Positions 14,733-62,567 of a stretch of DNA of 64,000 nt are shown one piece after another. The DNA is from a phage, in the sequence record PZ445451.1; one strand, given 5' to 3'. The position numbers were made by a program, and so were the translations under genes. The notes under the pieces were generated by a model. The model saw only the letters and a program-made list of their open reading frames with translations, did not search any database and was not told where the DNA came from. Each line of letters begins with the position of its first letter. Position 1 is the stretch's first letter.

Positions 14733-15860
14733 ATGAAATACACGATTTATGGTGATATTGTAAGTGTAAATAAAGATATGGGCGTGGAATCTAACTATCT
14801 TCCACCTGGATTCTATACTGTTAGTCGTGATCCCCTTGGCAATTATTTTTTAAGCCGTGGTAATCTGACAGGTGTACCGGATGTTCTGTATGGTGAAACA
14901 GAAAAACGAGCAAATCACGTTATTCGTACATTCCATCGCCGGAGTGCACAAGGTAAAAATACAGGCTTGCTTCTGACAGGAACTAAGGGCAGTGGTAAAA
15001 CTATGTTAGCCAAACTCATTAGTCGTGACCTTGTAGAAGAAGGTATTCCAACTATTATGGTTACTCAAGCCTACAGTGATGCTAATTTCATTGAACTTAT
15101 TAGCAAGATCACAGACAAAGCAGTCATTATTTTTGACGAGTTTGATAAAGTATATGAGAAGAAACAAGATCAAGAAGCACTTCTCACTTTATTAGATGGT
15201 ACTGGCAGTGGTAATAAACTGTTTATTCTGACTAAAAACAGTGGTTTTATCTCTGAATTCTTTTTAAATCGTCCTAGTCGTGTGTTTTATAATTTTAATT
15301 ATGATAAAATCTCACTAGAAACTATGATTGACTATTTAGATAAAAACCTGGATAACAAAGCACACTTTGATAATTTCCAAAGACTTTGGGATGTAAGTTT
15401 AGAGTTGTCCTTTGATGTGATCCAAGGTATAGTAGAAGAACTTAATTTCTATCCTGATTTATCCTTTAAAGAATGCATCTCTATGATGGGCGTTTCTTTG
15501 GGTGGTGGTAATAAATGGGATATCAGCAGCGTTGTTATTAATGGAAAACTTCAGAAAGTTAGCTGGGTATCTAGTTGGCATAACTTCACACCTGCAATCT
15601 TTTTAGGTGGTTCGTGCACACTAGACGTGTACTTGTCATCTCCAAGTGATGCAGACTCTAAAGAAGCCCTTGCTAATAGCTCTTACGTGGTTTTTGATGA
15701 TGAAGGCGATGCTCGAATTCCATTGAATGCGACAAAAATGAAAGCAGATCTTATTACAGGCGGTAAAATAGTTGTGTTTAGTGATGATCCAGAAGATTCT
15801 TTCCGTATTGTTCTGGAACCAACTATCACCAATGGTGCAACTTTGGCAAGTGTGTTTTAA
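14733..15860 (+). CDS. AAA+ ATPase
   Basis: Track ORF; Walker A LLLTGTKGSGKTMLAK, Walker B VIIFDEFDKV; followed by rho-independent terminator. Confidence 0.7.
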   Translation: MKYTIYGDIVSVNKDMGVESNYLPPGFYTVSRDPLGNYFLSRGNLTGVPDVLYGETEKRANHVIRTFHRRSAQGKNTGLLLTGTKGSGKTMLAKLISRDLVEEGIPTIMVTQAYSDANFIELISKITDKAVIIFDEFDKVYEKKQDQEALLTLLDGTGSGNKLFILTKNSGFISEFFLNRPSRVFYNFNYDKISLETMIDYLDKNLDNKAHFDNFQRLWDVSLELSFDVIQGIVEELNFYPDLSFKECISMMGVSLGGGNKWDISSVVINGKLQKVSWVSSWHNFTPAIFLGGSCTLDVYLSSPSDADSKEALANSSYVVFDDEGDARIPLNATKMKADLITGGKIVVFSDDPEDSFRIVLEPTITNGATLASVF

Positions 15861-15876
15861 GTAAGCCAGCAAATAA

Positions 15877-15900
15877 AAACCCGCTTCGGCGGGTTTTCTT
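15877..15900 (+). terminator. Rho-independent terminator (CCCGC-TTCG-GCGGG-TTTTCTT)
   Basis: Seen directly after AAA+ ATPase gene. Confidence 0.7.
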
Positions 15901-15934: not shown

Positions 15935-17338
15935 ATGACAGCACCAAAATCATGGGAACAATATAAAGAAGAATTAACACCCCTTGCTAAAAATCACAAT
16001 ATTCAAATCCTGGGTTATGTTGGGGAATGGAAAGGGAGCAAGACTAAACTTAAACTATCTTGCCCTGATCATGGAGAGTGGGAAAGTACCACAATCGCTA
16101 AATTTAAAACTAAAGGCAGTAAATGTTGCCCCGATTGCAATGGTCGTAGAAAAGTAACAGAAGAAAAGGAATGTATTTCCCTTGTTGATATTGCTAAAGA
16201 AAGAGGGTTTACTTTTATAGGTCTTGCCGAGGAGTGGCGAGGTGTGCGAACAAAAATTCGCATAGTTTGCCCTAAACATGGAGAGTGGAACACCACGCAC
16301 ATTATTGATTTTAGGAATGGACGTGGTTGTCCTATCTGTTCTGGTAAGAAGCCGTTAACATGGGAAACAGAATTACCGATCTTGGCAGAGATAGCACAGA
16401 AGAAGGGGTATCAGGTGTTAGGGTACGTTGGAAAATGGAAAGGGTGTTACACAAAACTTGATTTGTTGTGTCATTGTGGGAACAGATGGGATACTACAAG
16501 TATTAACAGTTTTAAAAATGGCAATGGTTGTCCTTTATGTAGGAGGGAGAATATAAGGAAGGCAAAAACAATATCCGACGATCAACATATTGCAGATTTC
16601 TTTTCTACAGGGAAATTTAAGGAAGGCACTATCTTCACCAATACAGGGAAACGTAGTTGTAGTAAATCAGGAGATATTATCTGGATGATCGAGTGTCCTG
16701 TTTGCTCCCATGATGAATATGTTCAAGCAGGTGTTTGCGATGGTAAATTTTACTCTAGAGGAAGTGATCTTAAACAAGGAAGTATCCCTTGCCGCTGTGC
16801 AACTAGCTATCATTATACAGAAAATCAGATTACCTACAAAGTGAGAAAGGAAATAGAAAAGAAAGGGTATGTCTGGGTAGATTGGATTACCAAACCATCT
16901 TCTATAGGTAAGTTTAAATATCTTTGTCTTGTACATGGGGAGCAGATAGGGAGTGCTCGTAACTTATTAACTCAAGGGTGTGGGTGTTCACAGTGTGCTG
17001 GTCATAGTCAACAGCAATTATATATTAATATTGTTAAAGATAATGATATTACAGTTGCTCTTAAGTTTGGCATAGCTAAAGATAGTGACAGGCGATTAAA
17101 CAGTCAAAATAGCCGTAATCTGTTTTTTATGGAGCGTATTTGTTTATATGATTTTAGTACAGTGAAACAGTGTAAGGCTGCTGAAAGAGCTATAAAGAAA
17201 AAATTAAAAACTGGTATCTTAACAGCAAGAGAGTTGAAAGATGGTTATACAGAAACAGTAAGTGTTTCTGATTTGGAAAATCTTCAAAAAATTATTACAC
17301 AATATGGTGGCAAATTAGTATACAGTAAGGAGATGTAA
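15935..17338 (+). CDS. Multi-zinc-ribbon repeat protein with C-terminal GIY-YIG/T5orf172-like putative nuclease domain
   Basis: Track ORF; about 6 tandem repeats of CP.HGEW.TT.I..F..G.GCP.C.G; C-terminus ..LYINIVKDNDITVALKFGIAKDSDRRLNSQN..FMERI..AERAIKKKL..GYTETVSVS resembles the GIY-YIG-like T5orf172 fold (inference). Confidence 0.6.
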   Translation: MTAPKSWEQYKEELTPLAKNHNIQILGYVGEWKGSKTKLKLSCPDHGEWESTTIAKFKTKGSKCCPDCNGRRKVTEEKECISLVDIAKERGFTFIGLAEEWRGVRTKIRIVCPKHGEWNTTHIIDFRNGRGCPICSGKKPLTWETELPILAEIAQKKGYQVLGYVGKWKGCYTKLDLLCHCGNRWDTTSINSFKNGNGCPLCRRENIRKAKTISDDQHIADFFSTGKFKEGTIFTNTGKRSCSKSGDIIWMIECPVCSHDEYVQAGVCDGKFYSRGSDLKQGSIPCRCATSYHYTENQITYKVRKEIEKKGYVWVDWITKPSSIGKFKYLCLVHGEQIGSARNLLTQGCGCSQCAGHSQQQLYINIVKDNDITVALKFGIAKDSDRRLNSQNSRNLFFMERICLYDFSTVKQCKAAERAIKKKLKTGILTARELKDGYTETVSVSDLENLQKIITQYGGKLVYSKEM

Positions 17339-17890
17339 ATGCGGATTACTGATAAGTATGTGTTCTTCTTTTCAGCAAAAGATGAATTTAGCAACTGGTA
17401 TCTATCATCTTTTATTGAACCTTTAGCACCCAAGTATAATAATTCTATTACAAGTTCTGTTGAATTTACTTGTGTGGAACAATATATGATGTGGAGAAAA
17501 GCATGTTTGTTTTATGATTACAGTATTGCATCTTCTATTTTAACCGGAGATCTAAGATATACAGGAGAAAAAGAACAAGCATATTATAAGCGACTAGGCA
17601 GATTAGTTAAAGATTATGATGAAGATACCTGGACTTCTTTACGGGAGAAGATTGTCAAACGTGGTTTGTATCTTAAATACACACAAAATGAAGATCTCAA
17701 AAATAAACTTATAGCCTACGCAGATAAGGAGTTCGTAGAGGCAAGCCCCTATGATTCTATTTATGGTATCAAAATGGGGATGTGGGATCGTGATGTGGAA
17801 AATAAGGACTGTTGGAAAGGACAAAATCTTTTAGGAAAATGGCATACAGACCTTGCTGTTTATCTAAAAACACAATCTGATATTTCCTGA
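17339..17890 (+). CDS. NADAR (YbiA/DUF1768) family protein
   Basis: Track ORF; FFFSAKDEFSNW..EQYMMWRKA..W..REKIVKRGLYLKYTQNEDLKNKL..EFVEASPYDSIYGIK..CWKGQNLLGK matches NADAR signature. Confidence 0.8.
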   Translation: MRITDKYVFFFSAKDEFSNWYLSSFIEPLAPKYNNSITSSVEFTCVEQYMMWRKACLFYDYSIASSILTGDLRYTGEKEQAYYKRLGRLVKDYDEDTWTSLREKIVKRGLYLKYTQNEDLKNKLIAYADKEFVEASPYDSIYGIKMGMWDRDVENKDCWKGQNLLGKWHTDLAVYLKTQSDIS

Positions 17891-18101
17891 TATTTTGAAA
17901 ATTTTTATTTTTATAAAAAGGGGTGTGGGTTTCATGTACGGAAATTCACCCTCTGCACAGTATATCCAGAGTAAGTAGTATTCTACACCCTGTTAATAAA
18001 GTATTTAATTTGTTTGTTGGACTATGGTATCTGATCTTTAAAAGGCATACTATCTCTTAACTACTACTTATAACAAAACAGTAAAATCATTTTTATAAAA
18101 A

Positions 18102-18307
18102 GGACAAAATTATTTAAAGTTTTTACAGATTTTTGGATACAAATTTTGAAAATGAAAAGTTCAAGTTTGGTCAAAATTATTTAAAGTTTTTGTACGTATT
18201 TCTATCCAGATTTTGAAAATGAAAACTTCAATTTTTTAAAAATTCCCCAGTTTATTTAAAGTTTTTTTGCCTTTTTCCGTAGAAAAATCAAAAATGAAAA
18301 GTTCAAT
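18102..18307. repeat. Three tandem ~65-70 bp direct repeats (TATTTAAAGTTTTT ... TTTTGAAAATGAAAAGTTCAA)
   Basis: Seen directly: copies start near 18109, 18176 and 18249, in a convergent intergenic region. Confidence 0.7.
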
Positions 18308-18330
18308 TTCGTGTTTTTATAGGTGTGCGT

Positions 18331-18442
18331 ATGATAATCATTCTCATTTGTAAATGAGAATCATTATCATTTAATTATGTAAGTGATAATCATTCTCAGT
18401 AAGAGAATGAGAATCATTAGCAAATGAGAATTTTTCTCATTT
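18331..18442. promoter_or_regulatory. Array of 5 alternately oriented Fur-box-like palindromic motifs (TGATAATCATTCTCATT / AATGAGAATCATTATC)
   Basis: Seen directly; motif shares GATAATCATT core with the Fur box consensus GATAATGATAATCATTATC. Confidence 0.55.
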
Positions 18443-18703
18443 AGAGAATAACGCGCAGGGGCGGTGTTTGTCTCGCGCTCCCGTGTCCCCTCGCCATACA
18501 ATAAGAATAGCATAACCAACAACAAAAGCAAGCGATTATTTTTATCTTTACATTTCTTTACAAATTTATTTTAGACGAGCTACCGGCGATCAACCTTCCA
18601 ACCAGTGCCCCCTGGTATGTTAGCCCCGCCTTTACGCCGTGGGGGTGGCGTTTCCTCTTCTGTATGTAAAACAGTATAAGCCCGATCCCTGGGCTTGTCA
18701 AGA

Positions 18704-18970
18704 TTATTTTTTGTTTTCTTGCCAGGAAAGGACACCTAACCAAAAATACATATCGCCCCGCGCCCCTGGCGGGATCTTGCTTTCCCCGCCGCCACTGCAA
18801 GCCCATAAATAACCATCAGCGAACGGATCAAAATGTTCTATCTCTTCCACCTTATGATCGCCCAGGTTGAGAACGGTTTCAATCTTTAAGCCCGTTGCGC
18901 TTGCTACCTGGTGCACCGTGCCGCCTTGCCAGCCCAATGAGTGCATGAGATGTAAAGGAGTATTTGTCAT
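18704..18970 (-). CDS. Hypothetical protein (88 aa) in a GC-rich segment
   Basis: Track ORF with AAAGGAG SD; local GC content clearly higher than the rest of the window. Confidence 0.45.
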   Translation of the reverse strand: MTNTPLHLMHSLGWQGGTVHQVASATGLKIETVLNLGDHKVEEIEHFDPFADGYLWACSGGGESKIPPGARGDMYFWLGVLSWQENKK

Positions 18971-19234
18971 GGTATCGCCCTTTCTTTGATGTGCGCCCTG
19001 GTTGGCGCGGTAGAAAGATAATAGCCGTTTCCTTTATAGATAGCAAGCAAAAAAGAAATGAAAAAAGATTAAAAATGGTTGACGTTACCAGGATAATAAC
19101 ATATTATTCATCTTGTCGAGGGGGGCAAGGCACAACGACAATAAATAAAAGGCGGGTGCAATGCAGGACGGGCAAAGGTGAGGATCTCCATAATCCACCG
19201 TCACAATAACATTACTTATAAAAGGTTGATAACG

Positions 19235-19330
19235 ATGATCAAGAAAGAAAACAGCTTGACGGTTGGAACGATTAACGCTATCATTCTAGCCGTTCCATTT
19301 TGGATTGTAGTAGCGGTTGTTATTTTCTAA
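19235..19330 (+). CDS. Small hydrophobic peptide (31 aa, MIKKENSLTVGTINAIILAVPFWIVVAVVIF)
   Basis: Manual ORF; single TM-like segment; weak SD. Confidence 0.3.
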   Translation: MIKKENSLTVGTINAIILAVPFWIVVAVVIF

Positions 19331-19339
19331 AAAATATTC

Positions 19340-19397
19340 TTGACAACGTTTTTTAATCTGATAAGATGTATCACATAGGGCGGCAATAGTGCCGCTC
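19340..19397 (+). promoter_or_regulatory. sigma70-like promoter (TTGACA/TAAGAT) plus conserved 5' leader hairpin (GGGCGGCAATAGTGCCGCTC)
   Basis: Seen directly upstream of gene 19420. Confidence 0.6.
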
Positions 19398-19419
19398 ATA
19401 ACAGAAGAGAGAAATAATC

Positions 19420-19692
19420 ATGGCATCATATAGCGCATCAATGATCGTAACGGGCATGACTGGTAAACCTATGCGCGGTGGCGGATCTTTCGCTAACATC
19501 AATATTGATGGGCGTTTATCCCTGGATGCAGCGATCACCGTGGCACGGGAAACATTTAAAAAAGAATGTAATTTCAATAAACAAGATTATCTCGGCTTCG
19601 TTATTGAAAAAACAGCGCGCTTTGTTGATTATAAAAGCCCGAAAATGATCGACACTACACTAAAAGCGCAAGATGTAGCATTTTTGCTTTAA
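19420..19692 (+). CDS. Hypothetical protein (90 aa)
   Basis: Track ORF preceded by promoter-hairpin-SD (AGAAGAGAG) unit. Confidence 0.55.
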   Translation: MASYSASMIVTGMTGKPMRGGGSFANINIDGRLSLDAAITVARETFKKECNFNKQDYLGFVIEKTARFVDYKSPKMIDTTLKAQDVAFLL

Positions 19693-29106: not shown

Positions 29107-29184
29107 TAAATGATAATCATTCTTATTTATAGCTGATTATTTATGCAATAAACTGCATAATGCAATAATGATAATCATTCTTAA
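29107..29184. promoter_or_regulatory. Two Fur-box-like sites (AAATGATAATCATTCTTA; ATAATGATAATCATTCTTA)
   Basis: Seen directly; second copy matches 16 of 18 positions of Fur consensus ATAATGATAATCATTATC. Confidence 0.55.
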
Positions 29185-29542
29185 CTTATGACCATCTAAC
29201 CTATAAAATAATAAGTTATCTAACTAAATTAAAACTAATTATCCCACCTTTATTTATAACTTACTTTTACTATCTCATTGATAACCTTATATTAAACAAC
29301 AATAACCAATATAAATCATTACTAAGCTAACTATAATCTATCTAACCCTTAAAACTATAACTATAATCTATCGAATTGTTGCACAAAGTAACTATTAAAT
29401 TGTTAGTAACTTTACTAAATAATTAATATCCTATCTATTTATGATCTAATCTTTACCTTACTATCTATTACCTAAATAACCATTTCATACAGAAATTATT
29501 TCATACAATAACTATAACAAGAAATATAATTCGCAAGCGTAT

Positions 29543-29703
29543 CATTAGCAGCCTATGCCGGACACATAGGCGGCTAATAATAACGCAACTACACACCCCA
29601 CATAATAACCATCACCGATAGTTATTATTTGTGCTTATGTAGCTTGCAACAATTGCAAGCGCAACAATATACATGGTATATTGTATCCCTTACATTGTTG
29701 CGG
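29543..29703. repeat. Cluster of nested inverted repeats (13-bp stem ATTAGCAGCCTATG/CATAGGCGGCTAAT; CTTGCAACAATTGCAAG; CGCAACAAT...ATTGTTGCG enclosing ATATAC-ATG-GTATAT)
   Basis: Seen directly in the 1.8-kb non-coding region. Confidence 0.6.
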
Positions 29704-30042
29704 TGCGTTATTATTAGCTAATGTTTGGAACATTGGCTATAATATAAGCTACATATAATAAGCTATACAATAATAAACATAATGAATAATGACACTGATG
29801 ATCATAATGCGCCACCTTCCAGGGGGCGCTATGTGAACACAAAGAAATCTTTCTTGTCAAGAAAAATATCACCATTATTGCGCAAAATTATTTATATCTG
29901 AACAGATGATTTTTCATACTATTGCCCCCTATAGTATCCCTATTTGTTGTAATGTATTCCCCTATTTGTTGAGCCTACTCTCTTAAAAGCGCAATAAATT
30001 AGAATTATCTTGATTTTTAGGTAGTTTTATAGTATAGAAAAT

Positions 30043-30066
30043 ATGCAAATGATAATCATTATCAGC
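30043..30066. promoter_or_regulatory. Fur-box-like site (GCAAATGATAATCATTATC)
   Basis: Seen directly; AATGATAATCATTATC is a 16/16 match to the 3' part of the Fur consensus. Confidence 0.6.
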
Positions 30067-30229
30067 TATCTTCCACAGGTGGCACTATTTCACGCCAGAT
30101 CATTTCATTTGGCAAGGTGTATATAGATGTTTAGAAATGCCAAGCCATTGATTTACTTAGAATTTATCTGTTTTGTTGTGAGTAGTGCCTTTCTTGCTCA
30201 GAAAATAATCAAAAGTCTTATAAGTCATT

Positions 30230-30264
30230 GAATGATAATGCAAATGATAATTATTCTCATTGAT
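30230..30264. promoter_or_regulatory. Fur-box-like site (GAATGATAATGCAAATGATAATTATTCTCATT)
   Basis: Seen directly. Confidence 0.5.
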
Positions 30265-42324: not shown

Positions 42325-43137
42325 TTATTTAGTCAAATGATCTTCTATCATTTTTATGAAAGCAGGATTGCTAAAAGCATCTGCGGCCTTTTCTCGATAA
42401 ACAAAAACTCCTCTATCTTCGTAAAGAAGAGTTTCTTCGTAATTAATTCCTGGGTTAACAACAATCATTTTTGTACCCATACTAAGTGCAGGGAATAATT
42501 CCCAATTAAAATTGATAACTTGGTTTGAACATCCTACTACAACAACCAAATCTTGCATGGTCAAAGTATCAAACAAGTGAGCCATATCTGCATACAAAGG
42601 TGCAGCCTCACCAAAAAATACAACATTAGGCTTCACCCAGTTGTAATCATCTATGTTTATACTGTTGTAACCAATATCTACCAGTGTTTTGTAGTCCCCA
42701 GGATGCATACGGTAAACTACTTCAGGAAGATATCCGTGCACGTGGATAACAGAATCCCTGTCTACACCTGCTCGCTCTAGTAGATCATCAACGTTTGTTG
42801 TCAAGTTTACTACTTGGTTAGGATATTCCTTAAACCACTTTGCTATTTGAATATGTGCAGCATTAGGTTGTACATCTTTAAGCTCAACACGTCTTTTGTT
42901 ATAAAATTCGTGTGTTTTGGCATACAAATCCATACCGTTTTCGTCTACACCACCAACCACTGGAAGATCTGGTGATGTTCTCACACGATAACCTGCTTGG
43001 AAAGCTCCAATATCGCAGATCTCTTCTAAATCCCATTCTTCCCATAGGGCACGACCACTATCTGTGTCTGTTCGGAATGTTCGAATCCCACTGTCTGCAC
43101 TTAAACCAGCTCCACTAACAAAAATTACTCTTCGCAT
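42325..43137 (-). CDS. Sir2-family (sirtuin-like) NAD-dependent deacylase/ADP-ribosyltransferase, zinc-less
   Basis: Track ORF; VIFVSGAGLSADSGIRTFR (GAGIS..SGIP.FR), TTNVDDLLERAG (QN.D.LH..AG), IHVHG (catalytic His), KPNVVFFGE, VVVGCS; no CxxC zinc ribbon between HG and FGE. Confidence 0.75.
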   Translation of the reverse strand: MRRVIFVSGAGLSADSGIRTFRTDTDSGRALWEEWDLEEICDIGAFQAGYRVRTSPDLPVVGGVDENGMDLYAKTHEFYNKRRVELKDVQPNAAHIQIAKWFKEYPNQVVNLTTNVDDLLERAGVDRDSVIHVHGYLPEVVYRMHPGDYKTLVDIGYNSINIDDYNWVKPNVVFFGEAAPLYADMAHLFDTLTMQDLVVVVGCSNQVINFNWELFPALSMGTKMIVVNPGINYEETLLYEDRGVFVYREKAADAFSNPAFIKMIEDHLTK

Positions 43138-58857: not shown

Positions 58858-59942
58858 TAGAAGTCTAACTCCTCGTCATCACTTACATCTTTATTTGCTG
58901 AATTCAGTTTGTAAGCTGTAATTTGGATCTCCTGTGCTGCTGCTTGAATTTGATCTGGATTTAACCAAACATCCATCCAAGGCAGTGGACTTTTCTTCGG
59001 TGCACGGAATTTGTGTTTCATTTTCAGTCTGCGATAGATAGGCGCGGCATTGAAGTAAACCCAAAGTTTGAACAACTCTGCGTTACCACCAACGATAACC
59101 CTTCCTTCACTAAACAGATAGTCACACCAATCTTCCTCTTGTCCAACTACCGTATCAAGAATTTCTGTCAGAACGTCGATATTATCTTCGTATACTTTTC
59201 TCCAGACAGGATCTTTCAGCAGTGCATCAATAATAGCATAATCCATTTTAACGTGCAATAGTTCATCCAACATAATTTTTTGAATAAGTTTAGCTGCACC
59301 TACAAACAGTTGCTGCTCTGCTAAGGCAAATGTTGCAGCAAAAGATGATATGAATTGAATGCCTTCCAGACCGATAAGTGCAATCATTCCTTTCAGAATC
59401 AGTAGACGAAGGTTATCATCCTTCTCAATCAGACCTAGAGCATATTTATGTCCTGCCTCTGCCAGATCACTCATTATCTCTTCAACTATACCCATCCTCT
59501 GGAAGATTCTTTCGTTCTCCATAATCTGATCGATAACTTCATTTGGATTAGGGATACACTGACGAATAATTTCAGAATATGTCAAAGCGTGTAAAACTTC
59601 CATTTCTGATTGCTTCATCATCATTGCACATGCTTCGTTGTTGCTTAAAAATGGTGCAAACAAAGTGATGATTGATTTAGCAAGTGAATCATTTTCCCAC
59701 TGGAAAGATAGGTTTTTGATCATAACATCATAGTTGCTTTTAGAACAAGCTACGAAATCTTTTCGTGTCTGATCTAAGTTTACTTCGTTTTCATCCCAAT
59801 CTTGCTGTTTTTGTAGTTTGTACAGGCGATGCATTTCTGGGTATGTTACGTTAATAGAATCAAAAATACCTAACTGTTCGCCCAAAAATACAGGGTAGAA
59901 ACCTTCTTTGTAAGTGTCGTTGTATAAATTAATTGCTGCCAT
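58857..59942 (-). CDS. nrdB: Ribonucleoside-diphosphate reductase small subunit (class Ia NrdB)
   Basis: Track ORF; 361 aa, ferritin-like di-iron ligand helices (..EVLHALTYSEII.., ..LEGIQFISSFAATFAL..), acidic C-terminal tail DDEELDF; continuous ORF with no intron. Confidence 0.9.
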   Translation of the reverse strand: MAAINLYNDTYKEGFYPVFLGEQLGIFDSINVTYPEMHRLYKLQKQQDWDENEVNLDQTRKDFVACSKSNYDVMIKNLSFQWENDSLAKSIITLFAPFLSNNEACAMMMKQSEMEVLHALTYSEIIRQCIPNPNEVIDQIMENERIFQRMGIVEEIMSDLAEAGHKYALGLIEKDDNLRLLILKGMIALIGLEGIQFISSFAATFALAEQQLFVGAAKLIQKIMLDELLHVKMDYAIIDALLKDPVWRKVYEDNIDVLTEILDTVVGQEEDWCDYLFSEGRVIVGGNAELFKLWVYFNAAPIYRRLKMKHKFRAPKKSPLPWMDVWLNPDQIQAAAQEIQITAYKLNSANKDVSDDEELDF

Positions 59943-60264
59943 TTAAATCCTCCACAATATCACACATTGCTTTTATTGTATCAATGTGTTCTCTCTCCAT
60001 ACCATTCTCTATGTAAGCCTTCTCTAATGCGTTCCATACACTCTTTGTGAGTAGTACAGTAACCTCTCCCTCATATCTTGCCCTGGTTAAAGCATACCAG
60101 GTAGCTTCGGGATCATTGGAAGCCCATATTTCAACACTGGAAAATTGAAAACCTGCAATATGATGACAACACCAATCGAATGTAAAATCTTTACTATCTA
60201 CCAGTGTATAATTGCCCCAACGCCTTTGTGGTGTTGCCCCAGGTAATACAACTAATGTAGGCAT
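59929..60264 (-). CDS. Hypothetical protein (111 aa)
   Basis: Track ORF; start moved to MPTLVVLPG (AAGGAGG SD) so that the GC hairpin after nrdA is not coding. Confidence 0.5.
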   Translation of the reverse strand: MPTLVVLPGATPQRRWGNYTLVDSKDFTFDWCCHHIAGFQFSSVEIWASNDPEATWYALTRARYEGEVTVLLTKSVWNALEKAYIENGMEREHIDTIKAMCDIVEDLNGSN

Positions 60265-60305
60265 ATTCCTCCTTAAGAAATGGGGGACAAAGCCCCCTAG
60301 CTTCA

Positions 60306-62567
60306 TTACATCTTACAAGACTCACAACCGGATTCTTCATCCTCTTGAGCGAGTGAGGTTGCTGATTTTGTTCGACTATTTAGATAGTACAAAGATTTAC
60401 CACCAAGTTTTGCAAACTGAAGGATATATTGCATTTCTGATTTAATGGATAAACGACCACCTTCCATCTTAGAATAGTCAATCCACTTGTCACATGATGC
60501 ACCTTGATCTAAGAATTTAGTCAACAGTCCATATGCTTCAGCCATATCTTTATCTGGCGTATCCCAAGCCGATTGGTAAATATCTTTTAGTTTATCGTAA
60601 TCTGGCACAATAAACAAGACATTACCTTTTTGGCTTTGTTTATAAACTATAGTATCACGTACAGGATACACAGAGTTAGTCGTATTACTTACAAGACTAC
60701 TGGACTCATTCGGAGCAATAGCTGCTAATACACTATTTCGGATACCACCTTGTGCAATTATATCTTGTCGTAAACCTTCCCAATCCATTTTAAGTTTAAA
60801 ATTGCCAATATCGTCTACAGCTTTAGCGTAGGTATCAATAGGCAACCATCCTTCAGGCCATTTGGTTTTATGCATCCATTCTGCATTACCTTTCTCTTTT
60901 GCCAAACGAAGAGAAGCTCTTGCTAACCAGTAATAATGTATTTCTGCTAATTCGTGAATTAGTTTTTTGCCGTAAGGATCTGAATAAGTAACAAAATTAC
61001 TTGCCAGATAATGTGCAAGGTTTGTAATACCTACACCGATAGACCTACGTGCTTTAGCAGTGATTTCGTTATGTTTAAACGGATACTGCATTGTTTCAAT
61101 CACATTATCAATAGTTAGAACGGTATAATATGCAACATCTTCATATTCTTCTGGTGTAACACGACCAGCTACAATAGAAGACAGGAAGCATAATGCCAAT
61201 TCTTGGTCTTCTGTATTCTCACCTGTGAAAAGATCAGTCATATTGTGAAATGCTTTCGTAGGTAAGAAAATTTCTTGGCACAAGTTTGACTGGTAAATAA
61301 CATCCTTAAACGGAGTATGCTTATTAACATTATCCGCAAAGAACATATAAATACGTCCTGTTTCTGCTCTTTGTGTAATAATTTCTGCCAGAAGATCTCG
61401 TGCTTTTACAAACTTCTTCTTAATTCGTTTGCGACTAACTTTTTCATATACTTCTTCAAACTCTTCCTCGCTTTTATAAAGCGCCTCATAGAGTTCTGGT
61501 GCTTCGTCATAACTGACTAGCATCCAATCTTTACCTTTTGCTGCACGGCGCAGGAAAGCATTGTTTACTACAATAGAGTAATCAAGTTTATCTACTCGTT
61601 TTTCACTAACAGTAGTTGGATTTTTCAAACGTACCAGATCTTCAAAATCAGGTTCCAATATTGTAAACGTTACTGTTGCACTTCCACCACGGCTTGCTTG
61701 TTTTGATGCTCCAACACTTGTTTCCATCCATTTCAGATATGGTAAAAGACCACCGTGAACTATACGGTTGTTCTTAACACCTTGTCCTGTAGCACGGGTT
61801 TGGAGGTTAACACCAATACCTGCATTATTCAATGTATATTCATGAGCAAGATAGTTAGCAATTGCTAAAGATTCTGCTGTATCATCTGCTCTAAACAGAC
61901 AACAAGAAGCACTACCTTTAATCTTAGTACGCAAAGTTGTTAAATAAGGTGATGGTAAATTAATCTTAAGATCACTTACGTAGGTATATAGACGTTTAAT
62001 GTCTTCTACTCTGCGATCTTTTGGTTGAATTTCCATTACCTTCATTGCTACACCAATGAATAAAAACTGTGGTGATTCAAAAACCACATCATTGATCGCA
62101 TCTTTCACAAGATACTTATCAACCATCTGGCGCAGTACGGAATAACCATAAGTTAGGTTTTTATCATGATTGATAATTTTACCAATCTCAATAATTTCTT
62201 CTTCTGTATAATCCATTTTCCCCCAATAGCCTTTACTTACAGACATATTGTAGAAATCCAGGAGGGAGGGGATATTGTGATATCCCCCATGAGCCTGTTT
62301 ATAGATCATACCAAGAAGTAACCGACCTGCCATATCACTATATGCCTGATCTTTCTTATCAATACATGCTGCTATCATAGCTTTATGTAAATCACGAGTA
62401 GGCACACCGTCGTAACAACGTTTAACAGCTTCGAGTTCAATTTCAGACCAATTTAATTTACCAGCAGCAAACTCTGACCATTTACGAAGTTTTTCTGGAT
62501 TAAATTCTTCTTTCTTGCCGTTTGTTTTTGTTACATAACGGATAGATTTGCTTAGATACTGAGTCAC
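60306..62567 (-). CDS. nrdA: Ribonucleoside-diphosphate reductase large subunit (class Ia NrdA)
   Basis: Track ORF; 753 aa, N-terminal ATP-cone-like segment, C-terminal Cys pair ..SGCESCKM, gene order nrdA-nrdB. Confidence 0.9.
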   Translation of the reverse strand: MTQYLSKSIRYVTKTNGKKEEFNPEKLRKWSEFAAGKLNWSEIELEAVKRCYDGVPTRDLHKAMIAACIDKKDQAYSDMAGRLLLGMIYKQAHGGYHNIPSLLDFYNMSVSKGYWGKMDYTEEEIIEIGKIINHDKNLTYGYSVLRQMVDKYLVKDAINDVVFESPQFLFIGVAMKVMEIQPKDRRVEDIKRLYTYVSDLKINLPSPYLTTLRTKIKGSASCCLFRADDTAESLAIANYLAHEYTLNNAGIGVNLQTRATGQGVKNNRIVHGGLLPYLKWMETSVGASKQASRGGSATVTFTILEPDFEDLVRLKNPTTVSEKRVDKLDYSIVVNNAFLRRAAKGKDWMLVSYDEAPELYEALYKSEEEFEEVYEKVSRKRIKKKFVKARDLLAEIITQRAETGRIYMFFADNVNKHTPFKDVIYQSNLCQEIFLPTKAFHNMTDLFTGENTEDQELALCFLSSIVAGRVTPEEYEDVAYYTVLTIDNVIETMQYPFKHNEITAKARRSIGVGITNLAHYLASNFVTYSDPYGKKLIHELAEIHYYWLARASLRLAKEKGNAEWMHKTKWPEGWLPIDTYAKAVDDIGNFKLKMDWEGLRQDIIAQGGIRNSVLAAIAPNESSSLVSNTTNSVYPVRDTIVYKQSQKGNVLFIVPDYDKLKDIYQSAWDTPDKDMAEAYGLLTKFLDQGASCDKWIDYSKMEGGRLSIKSEMQYILQFAKLGGKSLYYLNSRTKSATSLAQEDEESGCESCKM

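Follow-up and report, generated by a model that had tools for sequence, protein, structure and literature searches.

The window analysed here is a 64,000-nucleotide stretch of the phage sequence record PZ445451.1, and the gene of interest within it encodes a protein of the NADAR family. It follows an endonuclease gene so closely that the upstream TAA stop codon (17336-17338) abuts the NADAR ATG without any spacer. The open reading frame (ORF) that an earlier, sequence-only reading had picked out at this locus is real, and all five NADAR motifs quoted in that reading are present in its translation. The gene and its translation signal lie as follows:

17339..17890, plus strand: NADAR coding sequence, with an ATG start and 183 codons plus stop; the same gene as bas60_0111 (protein QXV83846.1)
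17327..17332, plus strand: Shine-Dalgarno sequence AAGGAG, six bases 5' of the NADAR ATG, as read from the sequence

Around the gene, 5 kb of the window match Escherichia phage PaulScherrer (MZ501100.1) at 100% identity, and the bas60_ locus tags of that record identify it as phage Bas60 of the BASEL collection; window coordinates equal MZ501100.1 coordinates minus 64,675. Bas60 is a 150-kb virulent E. coli myovirus. It is placed by GenBank in the Stephanstirmvirinae, genus Justusliebigvirus, whereas Johannesman, Awasthi, Carlson & LeRoux (Nat Commun 2025; PMC11825919) put Bas60, Bas61 and Bas62 in the Vequintavirinae. These three phages carry a distinct NADAR that those authors named AdfN(Bas60), and which groups with bacterial NADARs that are neither DarT-associated nor YbiA (PMC11825919). 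Because the window corresponds to the Bas60 genome at 100% identity and that genome has a single NADAR locus, we take the ORF to be the published AdfN(Bas60), the same protein with no difference at the sequence level. One NADAR place was found in the Bas60 record by tblastn, and a hidden Markov model (HMM) built from 63 homologues selected only bas60_0111 among 1,995 six-frame ORFs (record positions 1-145,999). Together these searches rule out a second Bas60 NADAR as the published AdfN, with the reservation that the HMM would miss a strongly diverged T4-type copy. The Bas62 orthologue differs from the Bas60 protein at 3 of 183 residues.

The published phenotypes are direct. AdfN(Bas60) counteracts DarT1 toxicity in uninfected E. 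coli, and its ectopic expression restores the full titre of RB69, T5 and Bas25 on DarTG1 hosts (PMC11825919, Fig. 5b-e). It gives T5 no help against DarTG2 (PMC11825919). The proposal that this gene encodes a reverser of DNA ADP-ribosylation with a counter-defence role is correct, and had already been published for this very protein. Its extension to DarTG-type systems in general holds for the guanine-modifying DarTG1 and fails for the thymine-modifying DarTG2, which AdfN(Bas60) does not counter. We consider it highly probable (roughly 90%) that the gene is AdfN(Bas60), an orphan, antitoxin-like NADAR ADP-ribosylglycohydrolase that reverses guanine ADP-ribosylation by DarT1.

Assignment to the family is unambiguous at the domain level. 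The protein matches Pfam NADAR (PF08719 / DUF1768) at E=3.5e-36, scoring 125.4 bits against a gathering score of 35.1 and covering profile positions 9-154 of 163. It also matches PHROG 1017 (E=6e-50), which is annotated as function unknown. The NCBIfam model for 'NADAR family anti-phage protein' is far under threshold, at 26 bits against a cut-off of 240. In a PADLOC scan the sole match was PDC-M42C, the NADAR component of a candidate defence system, and the PADLOC DarG model did not match. Neither Pfam nor PADLOC finds a DarT or ADP-ribosyltransferase (ART) domain in the genes flanking the NADAR gene, and no DarT or DarG model matches in PADLOC. The Bas60 NADAR is an orphan in this sense: it is phage-encoded, with no cognate DarT toxin adjoining.

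Among structures in the Protein Data Bank, the protein matches the Phytophthora nicotianae NADAR:ADP-ribose complex (PnNADAR; 8BAU) at E=2e-12, or 3e-35 with the 63-homologue profile. E. coli YbiA (2B3W) is matched at E=0.035 by phmmer and at 2e-17 with the same profile. An AlphaFold2 model built from the 63 homologues has a mean predicted local distance difference test score (pLDDT) of 97.4 and a predicted template-modelling score (pTM) of 0.91, and the modelled chain adopts the NADAR alpha+beta fold. In PnNADAR, E43 and E125 lie at the distal ribose, while K50, K75, R79, W89, R93, D130 and W133 touch the diphosphate and adenine (Schuller et al. 2023; PMC11543638). The chain index of 8BAU runs two ahead of the numbering in that paper, and this offset was allowed for in residue mapping. 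By HMMER alignment to 8BAU, PnNADAR E43, E125, K50, K75, R79, W89, R93, D130 and W133 correspond to Bas60 E47, E134, K54, K84, R88, W98, R102, D139 and Y142. All of these catalytic and ADP-ribose-contacting residues are kept except the last, where tryptophan is replaced by tyrosine. The match to NADAR catalytic residues, whose absence the sequence-only reading had named as grounds for abandoning its proposal, is present. Throughout the 63-sequence alignment, F10, S18, E47, K54, K84, G87, W98, E134 and D139 are invariant. The codons of three residues predicted to matter most for catalysis are:

17477..17479, plus strand: Glu47 codon, predicted catalytic glutamate, equivalent to PnNADAR E43, E. 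coli C7 DarG1 E88 and T4 AdfN E36
17498..17500, plus strand: Lys54 codon, predicted catalytic and pyrophosphate-contacting lysine, equivalent to PnNADAR K50, C7 DarG1 K95 and T4 AdfN K43
17738..17740, plus strand: Glu134 codon, predicted second acidic residue at the distal ribose, equivalent to PnNADAR E125

Comparison with better-known NADARs helps to place the Bas60 protein within the superfamily. PnNADAR represents the generic, stand-alone family and comes from a eukaryotic host. Compared with PnNADAR, the N-terminal hairpin region of the Bas60 protein contains additional residues (183 amino acids in all, against 161 positions of the family profile). A functional counterpart is AdfN(T4), the product gp30.3, which is likewise a phage orphan NADAR that counters DarTG1. 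Deletions of adfN in T2 and T4 showed that the gene is needed for each phage's own resistance to DarTG1, and the catalytic residues mutated in T4 AdfN were E36 and K43 (PMC11825919). In an hhalign profile comparison, this pair aligns with Bas60 E47 and K54. Pairwise similarity between the two proteins nevertheless falls short of significance (BLASTP E=2.3; hhalign E=0.003, probability 10%), and they differ in behaviour: AdfN(T4) requires the context of a T-even infection and cannot counter DarT1 by itself, as AdfN(Bas60) can (PMC11825919). Position 134 separates them further, being Glu in Bas60, His in T4-type phage NADARs (T4 gp30.3 ...KVLKH...), and a shifted Asp in DarG1. Membership of the T4-type (gp30.3) clade is ruled out by the retained Glu134, together with the BLASTP and hhalign values. 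AdfN(Bas60) and AdfN(T4) were acquired independently. The weak similarity to T4 and the retention of Glu134 fit the conclusion of PMC11825919 that phages have acquired NADARs several times.

DarG1, the NADAR antitoxin of DarTG1 in E. coli C7 and G. lovleyi (8BAT), is another member of the superfamily and reverses the same DarT1-made modification. The catalytic Asp of DarG1 (D171 in C7, two residues before the conserved Glu) nonetheless corresponds to Phe132 in Bas60. A DarG1-type assignment is ruled out, as the protein has no N-terminal extension, no DarT neighbour, and only distant structural similarity.

The GenBank product name, 'putative YbiA-like N-glycosidase', implies another function, in which the protein would be a housekeeping enzyme that destroys reactive intermediates of the riboflavin pathway or other nucleotide intermediates. 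This is close to the alternative offered by the sequence-only reading, namely repair of a phage-made nucleotide intermediate, and we regard it as very improbable. E. coli YbiA is a riboflavin-intermediate N-glycosidase with a metabolic role, encoded in a LexA-controlled operon, and gives cells no protection from DarT1, unlike AdfN(Bas60). By every measure compared, the Bas60 protein resembles 8BAU, a generic NADAR, more than YbiA. No riboflavin genes lie near the NADAR gene, which is stand-alone, and none are annotated in those portions of the Bas60 record that were read. The context therefore lends no support to either form of the idea. Labels such as 'GTP cyclohydrolase II' and 'ribA/ribD-fused' among homologues, which might have suggested a riboflavin link, trace to fused relatives rather than to the local context. 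A different possibility is that the main substrates are soluble ADP-ribose derivatives, acting as immune signals or arising as by-products, which would be processed alongside salvage of nicotinamide adenine dinucleotide (NAD+), with activity on DNA being secondary. Iyer et al. 2022 proposed such a role for phage NADARs, and pointed to NADAR genes beside NadV/NadM in phages. The nearest relatives at 40-46% identity are within a few kb of genes for NAMPT, an NMNAT-like CTP_transf_like protein, a phosphoribosyltransferase (PRTase) and a nucleoside deoxyribosyltransferase, and Bas60 itself encodes NAMPT, phosphoribosyl pyrophosphate (PRPP) synthetase, a macrodomain protein and a sirtuin. However, the NAD and ADP-ribose genes of Bas60 are ~20-60 kb from the NADAR gene rather than adjoining it. 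Moreover, AdfN(Bas60) alone counters a DNA-modifying toxin and rescues three unrelated phages, a direct macromolecular phenotype (PMC11825919), and every NADAR class tested to date hydrolyses guanine-linked ADP-ribose on nucleic acids. We therefore think this explanation improbable too, if marginally less so than a YbiA-type function.

Some points do weigh against the identification as a DarT1-countering AdfN. The protein exceeds the cut-off of NCBIfam TIGR02464 (COG3236), 'riboflavin biosynthesis intermediates N-glycosidase' (109.4 bits against 73.7), although this is a domain-wide model that does not separate NADAR subfamilies. Because the 40-46% relatives lie beside NAD-salvage genes, an additional role in NAD/ADP-ribose metabolism or in signal degradation stays alive, at low probability. 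We infer identity with the clone used in the published experiments from the Bas60 genome and its single NADAR locus. In the Results of PMC11825919, assays of AdfN(Bas60) are solely in vivo, and the enzymology concerns AdfN(T4). Finally, the main text of PMC11825919 contains neither a Bas60 deletion nor the DarTG1 sensitivity of Bas60-62, so that the gene's necessity in native Bas60 is presumed.

The function of AdfN(Bas60) can be pictured as follows. DarT1 joins C1'' of ADP-ribose to the N2 of guanine in DNA, and NADARs hydrolyse that bond (PMC11543638). During infection of a DarTG1-carrying cell, DarT1 places ADP-ribose on the guanine N2 amino group of phage DNA and blocks replication. The phage NADAR would then cut the N-glycosidic bond, freeing ADP-ribose and restoring normal guanine, such that replication could continue. 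The target of AdfN(Bas60) would be the modification rather than the toxin, no other phage factors are required, and thymine-linked ADP-ribose made by DarT2 would be left in place. This analysis itself established the gene's identity and fold, the conservation of the catalytic and ADP-ribose-binding residues, the conserved synteny, and that no toxin is linked. The chemical step is predicted by homology to PnNADAR and C7 DarG1, as are the roles of E47, K54 and E134. Expression is likely to be early, because the gene is part of a run of small rightward genes with sigma-70-like promoters, and we infer that it is this gene that protects Bas60 itself.

Immediately upstream of the NADAR gene, the neighbourhood comprises two larger genes:

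14733-15860, plus strand: bas60_0109, AAA+ ATPase (PHROG 2376), 375 residues, annotated 'FtsH-like protease'
15935-17338, plus strand: 467-amino-acid protein with four CapR repeats and a T5orf172 domain (PHROG 681 'endonuclease'), adjoining the NADAR gene on its 5' side

The protease label of bas60_0109 looks unfounded: only AAA+/STAND-type ATPase models match, and no peptidase domain was found in its 375 residues. A strong hairpin terminator (15876-15897) lies between this gene and the endonuclease and NADAR genes. The CapR/T5orf172 protein is probably a homing-type endonuclease. Its Bas62 orthologue is 390 amino acids long, about one repeat shorter, and this difference in length explains why many relatives are matched by BLAST in two pieces at 96% coverage. 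The other neighbours of the NADAR gene are small ORFs without family assignment. The suggested block of other anti-defence-like genes around it is unsupported, though not disproved, by Pfam, PHROG and PADLOC, which assign the neighbours as an AAA+ ATPase and a CapR/T5orf172 endonuclease and leave the rest unassigned. Other Bas60 genes related to NAD and ADP-ribose are dispersed. A SIR2-family sirtuin lies on the minus strand of the window at 42325-43137 (Pfam SIR2, E=3e-22). Beyond the window, at Bas60 record positions 59888-61454 and 143141-145839, are a macrodomain protein beside a phosphoribosyltransferase, and PRPP synthetase together with NAMPT. This macrodomain protein could be an AdfM-like anti-DarTG2 factor.

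The order of ATPase, endonuclease, NADAR and then a non-coding gap of ~1.3-1.5 kb is conserved in Justusliebigvirus. Phapecoctavirus has the same gene order with two extra small ORFs, and its NADAR is 57-59% identical. In the Vequintavirinae (Mydovirus), a ~42%-identical NADAR homologue is found amid DNA-repair genes. More broadly, tblastn located NADAR homologues in 725 phage records, mostly of large myoviruses and including Staphylococcus K-like and Listeria A511-like phages, a spread that agrees with Iyer et al. 2022. The closest relatives outside the Stephanstirmvirinae (40-46% identity) are encoded on 300-455 kb metagenome contigs with phage-like gene content, near the genes for NAMPT and the other enzymes named above, and one such contig also carries an Anti-Pycsar Apyc1-like gene within a few kb of its NADAR gene. 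These neighbourhoods suggest that jumbo phages have islands for counter-defence or NAD. Annotation of homologues is uneven: the label is 'GTP cyclohydrolase II' in SF1-1 and EFLK1, and 'swarming motility protein' in UPEC06. The host label of the records named 'Campylobacter phage C3/A150' is doubtful, since in the NADAR region these share ~98% identity with E. coli Justusliebigvirus.

The 1.5 kb 3' of the NADAR gene (17891-19420) contains nearly no convincing ORFs and ends in a GC-rich segment. The features in this gap are:

18089-18309: three AT-rich direct repeats of ~70 nt each, 23% GC, with the common motif TTATTTAAAGTTTTT...TTTGAAAATGAAAAGTTCAA
18440-18705, with a core of ~125 nt at 18545-18670: conserved non-coding element, ~550 bp downstream of the NADAR gene
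18704-18970, minus strand: bas60_0113, small ORF of 88 amino acids (PHROG 19316, no Pfam), in a GC-rich segment (46-50% GC)

Conservation of the non-coding element at the DNA level extends over two phage subfamilies and exceeds that of the neighbouring proteins. Between Bas60 and Phapecoctavirus ukendt, DNA identity is 85% over ~18234-19086, while the adjacent NADAR proteins are 57% identical. A 266-nt query (18440-18705) matches 237 phage records, with identities of 97-100% in Justusliebigvirus and ~91% in Phapecoctavirus, and the core retains 82-85% identity in Vequintavirinae of Klebsiella, Cronobacter and Pectobacterium. Alignment of six genera resolves four ordered blocks. The palindrome described below comes first and a GC-rich block second; TCTTTAC, present twice, makes up the third, and the fourth is CTACCGGCGATCMACCTTCC, after which come a variable hairpin and a T-rich tail. 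Coding potential is unlikely, because the indels are not multiples of three. The region contains no tRNAs, and Rfam returned nothing at the gathering score, just noise at E<=1. Fold z-scores of ~0 to +1 on both strands show no excess folding energy, and consensus structures from RNAalifold are weak. These null results from Rfam, tRNA and folding searches argue against a structured RNA. The element may be a regulatory region, a site related to the origin or to packaging, or an unstructured small RNA. On the minus strand, at 18701-18673, a near-consensus sigma-70 promoter (TTGACA-17-TATACT) begins directly after the bas60_0113 stop codon. The first ~30 codons of bas60_0113 are nearly identical in nucleotides between genera, and in Shigella phage SF1-1 the C-terminal half of this ORF and the downstream sequence have been replaced.

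The element is preceded by an array of palindromes. A 17-bp palindrome, ATGAGAATCATTCTCAT, occurs in five copies at 18331-18440, and in four further copies within a second non-coding gap at 29110-30260. All nine sites fall within these two gaps (14 strand-matches against 0.34 expected), and one copy is shared by six genera spanning two subfamilies. The sequence of the palindrome is similar to the Fur box of E. coli, GATAATGATAATCATTATC: with up to 3 mismatches allowed, the Fur consensus is matched 6 times where 0.03 would be expected. Judged by this resemblance, the palindromes are candidate binding sites that could be recognised by host Fur or by a phage regulator. The AT-rich repeats, whose equivalent in phage alia is annotated 'repeat_region', may be iteron-like or promoter-array-like. 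In the literature that could be searched, no description of the element or the palindrome array was found, nor anything relevant on small RNAs or Fur boxes for these phage subfamilies. The downstream element and palindrome array are more intriguing than the NADAR finding, and the element merits its own entry.

The counter-defence role of this protein has been known since 2025, so that the NADAR finding is correct but not new. That a validated function was reached from raw sequence alone makes it a positive control, and it adds little as discovery. On substrate breadth, a 2026 paper shows that removal of cytidine-linked ADP-ribose, from DNA as well as RNA, is a further activity of generic and YbiA-type NADARs, while DarG1 and the T4 NADAR lack it. 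As the Bas60 enzyme retains the glutamate and groups structurally with PnNADAR and generic NADARs, unlike DarG1 and T4 gp30.3, we tentatively speculate, without considering it likely, that NADARs of the AdfN(Bas60) type are broad nucleic-acid de-ADP-ribosylases, also acting on cytidine- and RNA-linked ADP-ribose. If true, these enzymes would protect this group of large myoviruses against ADP-ribosylating toxins beyond DarT1. The NADAR would then represent one arm of a dispersed NAD/ADP-ribose counter-defence kit, together with the macrodomain protein, sirtuin, NAMPT and PRPP synthetase.
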